From Thermoproteota archaeon (GTDB lineage Archaea > Korarchaeota > Korarchaeia > Korarchaeales > Korarchaeaceae): a stretch of DNA of 64,000 nucleotides. The translations under genes were made by a program, and so were the position numbers. The stretch lies in assembly GCA_026986575.1 (NCBI GenBank), contig JALSOH010000006.1, positions 440,153-504,152 on the forward strand, read 5' to 3'. Shown here in pieces: positions 28,375 to 32,399 of this stretch (within the stretch, counting starts at the first letter, position 1; each line of letters begins with the position of its first letter). Under the pieces are notes generated by a model. That model searched no databases and had not been told where the DNA came from. It saw only the letters and a program-made list of their open reading frames with translations.

Positions 28375-30183
28375 ATGAGGGACATGTTATTCATTGAGGT
28401 GGCGAAGTACTACGAGAGGATAGAAGCCACATCCGGCAGGCTAGAGATGATAGACTACCTCAAGAAGCTCTTCTTGGAGACTCCTCCGGAGATACTGGAT
28501 AAAGTGGTCTACCTCACGCTTGGAAGCATAGCTCCCGCCTACGAGGGAGTCGAGCTCGGGGTAGGGGAGAAGCTCCTCCTCAAGTCCCTCTCGATGGCCA
28601 CGGGCATATCTCAGAACAAGCTAGAGGCCAAGTATCCAGAGCTGGGTGATATAGGGAAGCTGGCCGAGTGGGCCGTGGAGAACAAGGTGGCCCAGTCCTT
28701 CTTCACCGAGGACCTCACCGTGAACAGGGTCTTCGACACCCTAAGGAGGGTAGCAGAGATCGCAGGTGAGAAGGCCCAAGATGCCAAGATAAGGTTGCTA
28801 GCCGGACTGTTCAGCGATGCCAAGCCCCTAGAGGCCAGATACATAGCTAGAGTGGTGACGGAGAGGCTGAGGCTTGGAGTGAGGGACATGACAGTCTTGG
28901 ACGCCCTAGCGGAAGCCTTCCTCAAGGGGAGGGCCTTCAGGGACAAGTTAGAGAGGAAGTACAACATCTTCCCCGACATTGGTAGGATAGCGAAGATAGT
29001 GGCGGCTAGGGGCTTTGAGGGATTGGAGGAGATCAAACTCACCTTGGGAATACCTGTCAGGCCCATGTTAGCCCAGAGGCTCAGGTCCGCCCAAGAGATA
29101 ATGGATAAGATAGGGCCGAGGGTGTACGCGGAATTCAAGTATGATGGGGAGAGGATGCAGATCCACGTCTGGAAGGATGGAAAGGTCCAGATATTCTCCA
29201 GAAGGCTGGAGAACATTACTGAACCTTATCCGGACGTGAGAGAGTTTGTATCCAAGGCCGTGGAGGGTCACGATGTCGTGCTAGACAGCGAGACCGTGGC
29301 AGTGAACCCTGACACTGGAGAGATTCTCCCATTCCAGGAGCTGATGCACAGGAGGAGGAAGTACGGCGTGGAGGAGGCGATGAAGACCTATCCAACAGTG
29401 ACTTACGTGTTCGATGTGCTCTACTTAGACGGTAGAGAGCTTCTAGACGAACCGCTCGAGGAGAGGAGGAAGATCCTCCTCAATCTGCTGAAGGAGAACG
29501 AGAAAGCAAGGGTAGTCCAGTATGAGGTAGTGGATAACGATGTAGAGGAGCTGGAGAGGTTCTTCGAGCACGCGGTGGAGATGGGCACCGAAGGGCTAGT
29601 GGTGAAGGATCCCAAGTCCCAGTACCAAGCAGGGACTAGAGGATGGTCTTGGATCAAGCTCAAGAGGAGCTACATAAGTAAGATGGTGGAGCCGGTAGAT
29701 CTGGTGGTCGTGGGAGCCTTCTGGGGCAAGGGCAAGAGAGCTGGTACCTACGGCGCCCTCCTCATGGCCGCGTACTCTCCTGAGGAAGATGTGTTCAAGA
29801 CAGTGTGCAAGATGGGATCCGGCTTCACCGATGAGGAGCTCGCGGAGCTGCCTAAACTTCTGGAACCTTACAAGATAGAGCACAGGCACCCGAGCGTATT
29901 ATCTAATTTAGAGGCAGACGTCTGGTTCGTCCCTCAGAAGGTAGCTCAGGTGCTGGGAGACGAGATAACGCTCAGTCCCACCCACACCTGCGGCTGGGGT
30001 AAGGTGAAGAGGAACGCTGGGCTGGCGATAAGGTTCCCTAGGTTCATGGGATGGAGGGACGATAAGGGACCTCAGGATGCCACGACGGAGGAGGAGATTA
30101 TCCAGATGTATAAGATGCAGTTAACAACTGTTACAGATATAGAGGAACAGAAGTCTTCTATTTCAGAAAAAGATGAAAGATAA
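28375..30183 (+). CDS. lig: ATP-dependent DNA ligase
   Basis: EFKYDGERMQ, EGLVVK, WIKLK, DLVVVG, IRFPRF. Confidence 0.98.
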   Translation: MRDMLFIEVAKYYERIEATSGRLEMIDYLKKLFLETPPEILDKVVYLTLGSIAPAYEGVELGVGEKLLLKSLSMATGISQNKLEAKYPELGDIGKLAEWAVENKVAQSFFTEDLTVNRVFDTLRRVAEIAGEKAQDAKIRLLAGLFSDAKPLEARYIARVVTERLRLGVRDMTVLDALAEAFLKGRAFRDKLERKYNIFPDIGRIAKIVAARGFEGLEEIKLTLGIPVRPMLAQRLRSAQEIMDKIGPRVYAEFKYDGERMQIHVWKDGKVQIFSRRLENITEPYPDVREFVSKAVEGHDVVLDSETVAVNPDTGEILPFQELMHRRRKYGVEEAMKTYPTVTYVFDVLYLDGRELLDEPLEERRKILLNLLKENEKARVVQYEVVDNDVEELERFFEHAVEMGTEGLVVKDPKSQYQAGTRGWSWIKLKRSYISKMVEPVDLVVVGAFWGKGKRAGTYGALLMAAYSPEEDVFKTVCKMGSGFTDEELAELPKLLEPYKIEHRHPSVLSNLEADVWFVPQKVAQVLGDEITLSPTHTCGWGKVKRNAGLAIRFPRFMGWRDDKGPQDATTEEEIIQMYKMQLTTVTDIEEQKSSISEKDER

Positions 30184-30242
30184 TCATTTTATAAACTTTT
30201 TGAATCTAGCAAGCCGCTATAGCTTAGCTTGTTTCTAACTAG

Positions 30243-30455
30243 TTAGTAGCAACCACTATAGGAAACCCCACCACTTGCTATTATGCCTTCTCTACTGGAA
30301 TTATCATAGTTGTTTGGAGATGGGATATGTCCATAAGTTAAGATCGCATTCCATTGTGAGGATTGAGGGTAACATAGATTGGAGGGATACTCAAATCTTC
30401 TGATAAATTCATCTTGTGAGTCCGTAGATAGTGGGGATAGCATTAGGTAATGCAT
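30243..30455 (-). pseudogene. Possible 3' remnant of an unidentified gene
   Basis: 70-aa AT-rich open frame ending just after lig and beginning next to the 32-bp repeat at 30482; no recognisable motif. Confidence 0.25.
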
Positions 30456-30531
30456 TTCTCTGGGGGGTTAATGCCGCCACTCAATTGGGTACTGGCCTAA
30501 TGAAATATTAGCAATGCAAAGACCATCATTT

Positions 30532-30801
30532 TCAGATATCTCTGTAAGCCTTCTCCCTCCTCTCCACTAGGAGGACATCTACCCTTCTATCCTCCCAAGA
30601 GATCTCGTATATAACTCGAATATCTCCTATCCTAGCTCTGTAGGTATCAAAATATCCCTTGAGCTTCCTGATATCATAATAATCAGCTGGAATTGGGTTT
30701 TCCCTTAGGAGGAGAAAGAGCTCCAACACCCTCCTCCTGTAGAAACAAGGTAACTTTTTCAGTGATTTCTTGGCCCTCCTCGAAACCACGACCCGAAACA
30801 T
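30532..30801 (-). CDS. relE: RelE/ParE-family toxin
   Basis: F.VVVSRRAKK.LKKL...KLKG...YRARIGDIRVIY...REKAY. Confidence 0.93.
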   Translation of the reverse strand: MFRVVVSRRAKKSLKKLPCFYRRRVLELFLLLRENPIPADYYDIRKLKGYFDTYRARIGDIRVIYEISWEDRRVDVLLVERREKAYRDI

Positions 30802-31011
30802 TTAATCCTTCATCTCCTCTAGGAGATCCTCTAGCTCCACGAATGATCCCTTAGCTATTTCCTCCCTAGCTTCCTCAATCACCCTTTTCTCCTCTTCACT
30901 CAGCTCCTCTTTTGGAAGAAGCATTGCCCTTAACCTCAGTAACTCCAACCTAACTGAGTCTAGCTTCTTGACTAGGAGCTTTAACTGGTCTTCTGTTATC
31001 GTGACGCTCAT
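30802..31011 (-). CDS. Cognate antitoxin (archaeal RelB-like)
   Basis: 69 aa, acidic C-terminus (EELSEEE..IEEAREEI..G), directly upstream of relE. Confidence 0.85.
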   Translation of the reverse strand: MSVTITEDQLKLLVKKLDSVRLELLRLRAMLLPKEELSEEEKRVIEEAREEIAKGSFVELEDLLEEMKD

Positions 31012-31323
31012 CCTTCTTCCTCAATATCAGCGCTAACTCAAATTTAATTGTAAACTCTCCCATTTAGGTAGTGCCCTAATGAAATGTTAGCATGTTTGGG
31101 CTAGCCCAAACCAGCATTGTCATGTTAGGGCAGTTGCCCTAACTACCGGATGGAGCACGTATATGCTCAGTTTGGGTATTTACCCATAAAAGTTTATATT
31201 ATAGTTTGGGCATGCCCAAATTAGCATTTTCTTGCCATATGAAAACAATTTGATACTGTGGGCCTATCTTCCATTAAGGCACTGCCTTAATAAAACTTGA
31301 ACAATGCAAAGATCATCAATTTT

Positions 31324-31530
31324 TCAGATGCCTCGGTAAGCCTTCTCTCTAGACCCAATGAAGTGAACTACAATCCCCCTTCCAATCTATCGATTATATA
31401 ACCCTGATCTTCCCCATCTTATCCAGAATGAATCCCTGGTAACCTTTAAGCCTCCTCAAGTCTAGAGAGTGAGGGATCGAGTTATCCCCTAAGGTCCCCA
31501 ATATTTCGAGGACCTTTTCCTTGGTCGGGT
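31324..31530 (-). pseudogene. Degenerate second relE copy
   Basis: KEKVLEIL..L.DN.IP..DLRRLKGY...GKIRVI then a stop/frameshift, then IVVHFIGSREKAYRGI*, paralleling REKAYRDI* of the intact relE; downstream DNA is also duplicated. Confidence 0.8.
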
Positions 31531-31539
31531 TTGTCGGCT

Positions 31540-31950
31540 CCTCAAATGGTTTAAGAAGCCCCTCAATTACTACAAGGTCCAGCCCCTCCTCTTCTAACCT
31601 CTCGAAGTATTTCACATTCCCTTGACTAGAGGAAGATTCCGCTCAAGGGCAGAGGCTCCAACAATCAGATCCCTGAACTCCAATCGAAGTCCTAGCTTAC
31701 TCAATTTCACGTCCAAGAGTAGGGTCTTCTTGATTATTTCCTGATCGAGGGGAACGACCTCGTAGAGCGAGTCCAGAACCTCCTTCCACCTTTCCACATC
31801 CTTGTCTATGTACGCAAGACCGAACAGGTACTCGTACAGGGTGACCACAGGAATGCTCATGTAGTAGGATATGTGTGCGGCCTTCAGCACTCTTTCATCC
31901 TTATGCAGCTCTATGAGAGCATCAGTATCTAGTAGGACCTCTTCCACCAA
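31540..31950 (-). pseudogene. vapC: VapC (PIN) toxin with a 1-bp deletion near its 3' end
   Basis: VLLDTDALI, VTLYEY, FRDLIVGASAL...LPLV. One added base at ~31622 restores V(T)GNVKYFERL. Confidence 0.8.
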
Positions 31951-32171
31951 GTCTCCCTCCCCTCCCGGATTACCTTCCATATCTCCCTTGCTTCATCTTC
32001 GGTCAGTATCGTTGATCTCAGAATCCTCTCTATCAGATTCCTCTTTCTCTCTTCTATCAGGAGATTTATCAATTCATCGTAAGAATCCACCCCTAATTCC
32101 TCTTTTAGCCTCCTGAGCCTATCTATCGTCTTCCGAGATAATGTGAGGGTAGTTCTTCCTGATGAACTCAT
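31929..32171 (-). CDS. VapB-like antitoxin (ribbon-helix-helix)
   Basis: TTLTLSRKT..RL..LK...SYDELI..LI; overlaps the vapC start. Confidence 0.85.
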   Translation of the reverse strand: MSSSGRTTLTLSRKTIDRLRRLKEELGVDSYDELINLLIEERKRNLIERILRSTILTEDEAREIWKVIREGRETWWKRSY

Positions 32172-32270
32172 CACGCATAATGAATACATGGCGAATGTAT
32201 ACGTGCCAAGTGGTGGACTAAGGGCCCTCATCTGGAGGAGCGCCGACATGGCAGTTGAAAGGAACGCGAT

Positions 32271-32399
32271 CTACGGATCCACCGTTCTTGGACCCTCTAA
32301 AGGAAGATTAGCTACTTCACGGGTAAGGTACGTTATACTGCTATGCTCCAAGAAAATCTTCACAGCGACTAATGGCTGCCCCTTCCTTCTCAATGACAT
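32271..32399 (-). pseudogene. Possible tyrosine-recombinase C-terminal remnant
   Basis: MSLRRKGQPLVAVKIFLEHSSITYL resembles box II G..L..V..LLGHSSI.TT..Y; a GAG to GGG change would restore LGH. Confidence 0.3.

Follow-up and report, generated by a model that had tools for sequence, protein, structure and literature searches.

It is common for a type II antitoxin to bind palindromes within its own promoter, the pdif modules of Acinetobacter are Xer-dependent modules, and the res sites of Tn3-family resolvases, like multi-site transposon ends, are arrays of dyad binding sites that lie over a promoter at the end of an element. Integrons have been published from archaea too, and the part of that work cited here describes them as mostly clusters of attC sites without an integrase, with many toxin-antitoxin (TA) cassettes (Ghaly et al. 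2022, PMC9668308). The dif site is, in the sections of two papers on which we draw, a single-copy site made of two 11-nt arms and a 6-nt spacer (PMC8371274, PMC2958812), and the screen for recombinase sites described by Cortez et al. in the second of these used a spacer range of 4-10 nt (PMC2958812). Here we describe a relBE locus from a Thermoproteota archaeon of the Korarchaeaceae (assembly GCA_026986575.1) at which three 32-bp direct repeats bracket TA genes. The stretch of DNA that we analysed, hereafter the window, comprises 64,000 nt (contig JALSOH010000006.1, positions 440,153 to 504,152); it is the final 64 kb of contig C6 of a 1.91-Mb genome (53% GC, 11 contigs, 99.7% complete), and positions given without a contig name are those of the window. 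An original prediction, made from the sequence alone, had read the repeats as the borders of an integron- or dif-module-like array of TA cassettes. We find that the repeats belong to a larger family of dyad-symmetric sites (dyads), and we put the chance at about one in two (0.5) that these dyads once bound a protein of a mobile element since lost and survive as relics in a scrambled and decaying TA hotspot beside a DNA ligase gene.

Results

All three repeats lie where the original prediction had placed them (Table 1), and the 27 identical positions of 32 that it had counted between copies 1 and 2 are there; copies 1 and 3 agree at 21/32 and copies 2 and 3 at 23/32. The copies are all in direct orientation and bracket an intact relBE pair, situated between copies 1 and 2 as had been claimed, and a stretch between copies 2 and 3 that we call block B. 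CTAA-N7-TTAG is indeed contained in both copy 1 and copy 2, and copies 1 and 3 do share a continuation beyond the repeat: 40 of 49 aligned columns (82%) are alike across the stop codon and the final 8 codons of relE or of a relE-like relic, and further into relE the likeness falls to 84/148. The third copy had been said to stand downstream of a further relE-like module, which is correct as to its position, but blastx shows the module itself to be a broken relic. A chance origin of the likeness among the repeats is excluded. Copy 2, with ≤3 mismatches allowed, found 0 matches in 100 shuffles of the window (in the unshuffled window it matches only itself at this threshold, because copy 1 differs from it at 5 positions). 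With the same tolerance, a 20-mer core has two matches in the 1.91-Mb genome, both at this locus, against 0 for a reversed control, and a 25-mer consensus of the repeat finds just the three copies in this genome.

A point missed in the original prediction is that the locus holds seven related dyads, and that the repeats account for just three of them. The half-site is TTWGGGYA, and two facing half-sites with at most one mismatch each and 0-3 bases between them make up a relaxed dyad. Seven relaxed dyads fall within 800 bp (at 30484, 31063, 31095, 31125, 31171, 31205 and 31274), copies 1, 2 and 3 being the first, the second and the last of them. The whole genome holds 10 relaxed dyads, which leaves about 3 for the rest of the 1.9 Mb, and a shuffled genome holds 5; exact half-sites number 6 in 870 bp at the locus, against 0.064 per kb genome-wide. 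Within block B, the first three sites, counted from copy 2 onward, are spaced 32 and 30 bp, and the last two dyads flank a TATA-like AAAGTTTATATTATAG at 31189-31204, after which no gene follows here. As single-stranded DNA, block B folds with a z-score of -3.1. We also searched 43 genomes of the phylum for a strict dyad, TTWGGGC-N1-4-GCCCWAA, which occurs three times here (all in block B), six times in a relative that we refer to as G019, once in another (G003) and not at all in the other 40 of the 43; the reversed pattern, scanned as a control, matched one genome. The two half-sites of a dyad are not always complementary, in that TTT... faces ...TAA in 3/6 of the G019 sites and in 1/6 of the relaxed dyads of a metagenome contig, L034, and protein half-sites therefore fit the dyads better than hairpins do, although the variable spacing inside the dyads tells against them.

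Table 1. Features of the locus, with window positions; G numbers denote related genomes.
Feature	Position	Strand	Description
Repeat copy 1	30482-30513	+	imperfect dyad ATTGGGTA-C-TGGCCTAA at 30484-30500; downstream of the relE stop, 19 nt from it
Repeat copy 2	31061-31092	+	dyad P0 at 31063-31079; precedes the relB start by 52 nt; outermost of the block B sites
Repeat copy 3	31272-31303	+	perfect dyad TTAAGGCA-C-TGCCTTAA at 31274-31290; follows the relE-relic stop after 21 nt
Block B	31093..31271	+	dyads at 31095, 31125, 31171 and 31205, 30-46 bp apart start to start; with copy 2 a five-dyad module of ~160 bp
Element S	30228..30481		starts with dyad CTAACTAGTTAG (CTAAC-N2-4-GTTAG type); ~34-bp deletion in the window copy
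relE toxin gene, aRelE type	30532..30801	-	intact, 89 aa; Pfam ParE_toxin E 7.6e-8; PDB 1WMI chain A E 4.5e-16; 73% identical to the G007 ortholog
relB antitoxin gene, aRelB type	30802..31011	-	69 aa; directly upstream of relE; weak match to PDB 1WMI_B, E 0.089
relE relic	31325..31538	-	RelE residues 22-70 (with a stop at the position of Tyr65), then 72-89 in a different frame (blastx)
vapC (PIN) gene	31538..31980	-	Pfam PIN E 3.8e-8; open frame stops at 31612, 122 aa; former C-terminal part in another frame to ~31538
vapB antitoxin gene	31929..32249	-	Pfam VAPB_antitox E 1.1e-4, below the curated cut-off; 86-aa ortholog in G011
ATP-dependent DNA ligase gene	28375..30183	+	Pfam DNA_ligase_A_M E 3.9e-64; kept in G011, G020, G007 and G005; left border of the variable region

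The DNA on the two sides of copy 2 is found at two separate places in G019. On its contig C93 a relB remnant, the promoter and a dyad are held in common with the window up to 31085, beyond which the two diverge into unrelated DNA; on its contig C80 (45987-46159) a dyad and block B correspond to window 31057-31220 at 82% identity, with 34 consecutive identical nt that cover the TATA-like box and the dyad after it. Copy 2 is therefore the overlap of two homology blocks. On C80, block B has a MNT-HEPN pair on one side and, on the other, an open frame that begins 6 nt past the last dyad and runs off the contig end. In the orthologous MNT-HEPN region of G009 the likeness to G019 is lost 21 nt before the first dyad, and a zinc-ribbon gene follows; block B and its gene are therefore an insertion in G019, the end of which is the dyad. 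Only 34 residues of the G019 gene (L011 1679-1780) are known; this start of the protein has no significant relative in the 43 genomes, and the leads that it gave in a protein atlas are sub-threshold (a DUF6788 cluster at 0.83, below the level at which a lead is counted).

In every relative that we examined, the stretch from the ligase gene to a conserved 253-aa gene (from ~32445) is different. In G011, which has the closest arrangement lacking relBE, the ligase gene is followed by 182 unrelated bp and then by an intact vapC, and the breakpoints relative to the window, 30177 and 31538, are away from the repeats. The original prediction had proposed to compare strains for precise gain or loss between the repeats. 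Homology blocks do switch at copy 2 in G019, but the G011 arrangement does not break at the repeats. In both G007 and G005, relBE-type genes stand beside element S (see below) and the ligase gene, without the 32-mer, and the relE 3' flank has a different palindrome; in G005, fragments of relB and relE are duplicated, and one dyad (L018:4767) is found just upstream of a relB remnant. The relE genes of G007 and G005 are of different types, yet they have their last codons and the 3' flank next to element S in common, and this, together with the segment of ~80 bp shared by copies 1 and 3, argues that exchange between conserved relE 3' ends swaps or duplicates modules. We note that the same hotspot in G005 (contig C105; L018 1999-4393) also contains an open reading frame (ORF) of 456 aa, an archaeal ATPase by its looks, together with an AbrB/SpoVT-like antitoxin ORF and a PIN fragment. 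The region flanking the ligase gene thus collects different defence or TA genes in each species.

Several genes of the locus are broken. The relE relic lacks its first 21 codons and a partner antitoxin, and on its upstream side it is fused to what was once the 3' end of vapC, a stretch that has been displaced and runs in frame into the relic. The frameshift in vapC lies just before the C-terminal NVK-FERL stretch, and the G011 ortholog reads through at this point to give a protein of 149 aa. The relBE pair between copies 1 and 2, in which the toxin gene abuts the small antitoxin gene at 30801/30802, is a type II relBE pair of the archaeal aRelBE kind. All TA genes of the locus are on the minus strand, and the true start of vapB is probably later than 32249. 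Between the repeat copies there are only relBE and 179 bp of non-coding DNA, and we found no recombinase gene inside the bracketed segment. The window has no tRNA gene, and at gathering thresholds Rfam has no match to it; a more permissive search over 30150-31400 yielded a single match, at chance level.

The motif is rare. Across the 43 genomes of the phylum, the 25-mer consensus (≤3 mismatches) is found in two, this genome (3 matches, all here) and G019 (C80 and C93), and controls gave 0 in 43. An exact degenerate pattern, scanned against one genome per species of the whole collection (a set that by design left out the window's own genome), found two loci, which are the two G019 places, and in a metagenome collection the same pattern found one contig of 1472 bp, L034. 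The original prediction's suggestion that the repeat be sought in this genome and its relatives was therefore rewarded in G019 but nowhere else in this genome, and 41 of the 43 phylum genomes are without the motif. A dispersed repeat like a repetitive extragenic palindrome (REP) or a miniature inverted-repeat transposable element (MITE) is ruled out, the genome having no copies elsewhere. L034 (39% GC) carries six dyads of the family in 520 bp, beside a ribbon-helix-helix (RHH) gene and a winged-helix gene. Across L034 (1-1472) there are also two direct repeats of ~50 bp, each ending in a dyad, and a perfect 27-bp palindrome with 13-nt arms overlaps the stop codon of the winged-helix gene, which encodes 218 aa and is preceded by the RHH gene. 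The winged-helix protein has no relative in this genome and none in viral contigs, and relatedness between VapB and the RHH protein of L034 was undetectable. Scans of viral contigs with four patterns found nothing relevant; one palindrome, within a coding region of a viral contig rich in AT, is probably there by chance.

The integron- or dif-module-like array that had been proposed is not borne out, since there is no integron integrase (IntI), no attC core pair or fold and no 11+6+11 site; what does fit is the orientation of the sites at the borders, the three copies being direct. A PF00589 search of the genome found two places, neither with the IntI insertion and neither within 200 kb. One is a XerA-like gene of 258 aa, ~215 kb off, for which the best NCBIfam model is recomb_XerA_Arch (132.5 bits, against a curated cut-off of 220) and which integron-integrase models match only in two separate pieces; the other is a fragment of 113 aa on another contig. 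A consensus scan of both strands of 30184-32300 found no RYYYAAC...GTTRRRY pair 45-160 nt apart, although a single ACCTAAC is present inside relB. Nor is there an attC-like fold: the 80-nt relE 3' flank, at -5.5 kcal/mol (z +0.69), folds no better than its shuffles, and an outer stem beyond the dyad is present at 1/6 sites only (that of G019 on C80). With respect to dif, the dyads are centred on a base, with best spacers of 1, 3 or 5, and with a 6-nt spacer 5-8 of 11 arm positions pair. When 11-nt arms are considered, those of the window copies are complementary at 7-9/11 positions and those of the L034 and G019 C93 dyads, with a 5-nt centre, at 11/11 and 10/11. The motif is not a conserved dif, given its absence elsewhere in the genome and in 41 of the 43 phylum genomes, and we rejected the idea that the locus is the chromosomal dif itself, the motif being absent from 19/20 other genomes of the genus. 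In its rejection of a simple tandem duplication the original prediction is sustained, and dyad-symmetric sites do stand at mosaic junctions.

The original prediction had also remarked on a likeness to attI1. The attI1 core string that it gave does occur in the attI1 oligonucleotide printed in the relevant part of PMC2117344, and the dyad AGGGCAGTTGCCCTAA at 31127-31142 matches that oligonucleotide at 15/16 bases, a level that 0/150 random pieces of the window reach (maximum 13). The closeness does not extend past the dyad, however: over 30 nt it is 18/30, a level that 4/150 random pieces reach too. The likeness to attI1 may serve as a lead and is not to be taken as membership. We note that the text portion of the supplement to PMC9668308 contains none of the dyad motifs.

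The arrangement of the locus is the same across 29000-33146 in contigs of the probable source run (X1) and of a run from another study (X2), the latter with 13 base differences; a third run, X3, covers parts of the stretch at low depth and a fourth, X4, covers nothing. The contigs of these four runs contain no alternative joints, and as contigs drop rare variants they are silent on rare excision. In run X2, a 151-nt contig of depth 2 joins window position 31538 to sequence like the 182-bp spacer of G011, and a minority population with the G011-type arrangement thus seems to coexist in that sample.

Element S, which lies between the ligase gene and copy 1, is a conserved stretch of ~250-290 nt with homologs in G009, G020, G007 and G005 and a paralog in its own genome (C4:491931-492164; L012 1501-1734). 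In an alignment of all its copies the likeness ends at ~30480. We rejected the possibility that element S is a protein gene because its reading frames do not agree from copy to copy; by RNAalifold it has 48 pairs, of which 6 show compensatory changes, and there is no match in Rfam. Element S may represent an RNA gene missed by annotation, or else a target for attachment. G005 has duplicated parts of it around relB (a piece of 87 nt whose copies are 84% identical), and G007 has a related fragment upstream of relB.

Discussion

We have found that the repeats bracketing relBE are members of an undescribed and sharply defined family of dyads, at a locus that is otherwise of an ordinary kind, a scrambled TA hotspot with mobile-element debris. 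We favour the reading in which the dyads would have been bound by a dimeric protein belonging to the family of the lost element, perhaps a recombinase, perhaps a repressor of its own promoter. Copies 1 and 3 occupy the same position in two paralogous segments of ~80 bp (the last 8 relE codons, the 3' flank and the dyad), one of which follows the intact relBE pair and the other the 5'-truncated, frameshifted relE relic. Copy 2 is the outermost site of a 160-bp, five-dyad region that would have served as end and promoter of a foreign element; in G019 this module opens the insertion and leads straight into a gene, and in the present genome that gene is missing, which would leave the dyads orphaned. 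The direct repeats around relBE would then be a by-product of exchange or duplication of relE 3' ends and of the element having landed on, or next to, a dyad of this kind, and we infer that relBE is not a currently mobile cassette. In a tidy form of this scenario, the element would have integrated at the dyad behind the relE relic, and copies 2 and 3 would be its two junctions, which would account for the resemblance of copy 1 to copy 2 within the 32-mer and to copy 3 in the flanking DNA.

Several points weigh against the view that the dyads are relics of a lost element. Block B is present in two genomes only, and no intact element is known. We speak of a mobile element from the context of the insertion, because the G019 gene is known for 34 residues and has no identifiable relative, and our analysis brought up no protein that could bind the dyads. 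The inner spacing of the dyads varies, with 2-4 bases between GGGC and GCCC, which is awkward for a rigid dimer, and their neighbours differ by context, being relBE and vapBC here, MNT-HEPN in G019, and RHH and winged helix-turn-helix genes in L034. A dyad lies just upstream of relB-type relics both on C93 of G019 and in G005, an arrangement that also suits operators of relBE. Finally, copy 3 is less similar in the 32-mer than in the flank, but the drop in identity at the border of the 32-mer, which the tidy scenario predicts and which we considered as the sign of a crossover and set aside, does not reach significance (Fisher p 0.12), so that the order of events given above is tentative.

It is possible, though unlikely, that the repeats have no present or past function as sites and are leftovers of duplication or gene conversion between relE 3' flanks, their palindromes being incidental (for instance, hairpins at transcript ends). 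The likeness between copies 1 and 3 does belong to a longer stretch of paralogous sequence, G005 and G007 have been scrambled in a similar way with repeats unrelated to these, and many genes of the locus are broken. Leftovers of this kind would not, however, readily account for seven dyads of one family in 800 bp when there are ~3 elsewhere in 1.9 Mb, for arrays of the same family in both G019 and an unrelated contig of 39% GC (L034), for the 34-nt identical run over the TATA-like box and dyad within a module that is 82% identical overall, or for the 30-32 bp spacing of the first three sites of block B from copy 2 onward. Rather more doubtful is that the dyads are operators of relBE, bound by RelB-RelE or by another local antitoxin, with copies 1 and 3 as remnants of a duplicated operator. 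Palindromes bound by the antitoxin in its own promoter are, as noted above, common in type II systems, copy 2 does stand in front of relB, 52 nt from its start, and a dyad is found upstream of relB at 3/4 loci (the window, C93 of G019, which has the same promoter block, and G005). Yet the fourth, the relBE locus of G007, whose RelE is 73% identical, lacks an upstream dyad of this kind, copies 1 and 3 are downstream of relE and away from the promoter, block B flanks MNT-HEPN in G019, and L034 has six dyads without relBE. Among 18 loci with a relE homolog (of 21 places, 3 partial matches being left out), a perfect palindrome of at least 6 bp is present in the 3' flank at 8, but outside the window this motif is present at none. 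In addition, the DNA-binding domain of aRelB is listed as unknown in the review table that we cite (PMC4803016).

The dyads could also be working sites at which a tyrosine recombinase acts in trans, be it XerA or a foreign integrase, with relBE and block B as excisable cassettes. We consider this improbable, even though the integron idea behind it is a reasonable one because archaeal integrons, mostly without a nearby integrase and rich in TA genes, have been published (in the part of PMC9668308 cited above). In its favour, the dyad-symmetric repeats stand in direct orientation on either side of discrete units, both G019 comparisons show a switch of homology blocks at copy 2, and in G019 the dyad is the end of an insertion; the 5-nt centres of the L034 and C93 dyads are within the range used by Cortez et al. 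(PMC2958812, section cited above), one dyad has the 15/16 match to attI1, and a XerA-like gene is present in the genome. Set against this are the absence of IntI, the distance of ~215 kb to the sole intact tyrosine recombinase, the lack of an attC core pair or fold, arms in the window that are complementary at 7-9/11 positions only, and a spacer that departs from the 6-nt geometry. The motif is also missing from 41 of 43 genomes and from the rest of this one, the relBE orthologs of G007 and G005 do without the 32-mer, the G011-type arrangement breaks at 30177 and 31538 (the latter junction recurring in the minor contig of run X2), and the four other dyads of block B, variably spaced, make no sense as cassette borders. 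A further reading, which we regard as rather doubtful, holds that the dyads, including a 27-bp form whose arms are 11-13 nt long, might mark both the ends of an integrating element of archaea, so far undescribed, and its arm or operator sites. The element would land at dyads beside TA genes, copies 2 and 3 would be the left and right junctions of one such element, of which 211 bp are left, and TA modules at the hotspot would be exchanged at these sites by a recombinase.

If the dyads are only relics, then the locus adds to the TA hotspots that have arisen through repeated recombination and decay, and it is of use chiefly as a caution for annotation. If they are recombinase sites, they would represent a junction element, small and specific in sequence, from a lineage of archaea that has been poorly sampled, and would offer a handle on how TA genes move between archaeal hotspots. 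The family is rare (two genomes and one metagenome contig), stands at the border of the insertion in G019 and is directly testable. We also note a caution for annotation, in that the relE-like module here is a pseudogene and vapC is truncated, and a gene is not a cassette merely by virtue of being bracketed by repeats.

Comparison with known systems

The locus resembles the TA cassettes of integrons in that a TA pair with its own promoter, on the strand opposite to the orientation of the sites, is bracketed by direct imperfect palindromes. It differs in that the sites are single dyads of 17-32 bp, whereas attC sites are bipartite and 55-140 bp long, and in that there are only three units here, two of which are non-coding or broken, unlike an integron array. 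With dif/Xer modules it shares short dyad sites that bracket small modules including TA genes, and a XerA-like gene is present in the genome; here, however, three copies occur at one locus instead of one chromosomal site, all copies are direct, and the motif is not conserved in relatives.

Decayed archaeal element patchworks are similar in their broken genes, duplicated fragments and junctions at short repeats, and in a content that differs from relative to relative at one locus. The present locus departs from them in having no integrase remnant or tRNA target, and its junction motif is a family of dyads and not a pair of att duplicates of a target gene. The res sites and multi-site transposon ends offer a further comparison. 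The adjacent gene has been lost here, the 34 residues known from G019 have no likeness to resolvases, and, with no second end seen, mobility is here putative. As in those arrays, however, several dimer-type sites with unequal internal spacing extend over ~160 bp, overlap the promoter of an inward gene and stand at the border of an insertion.

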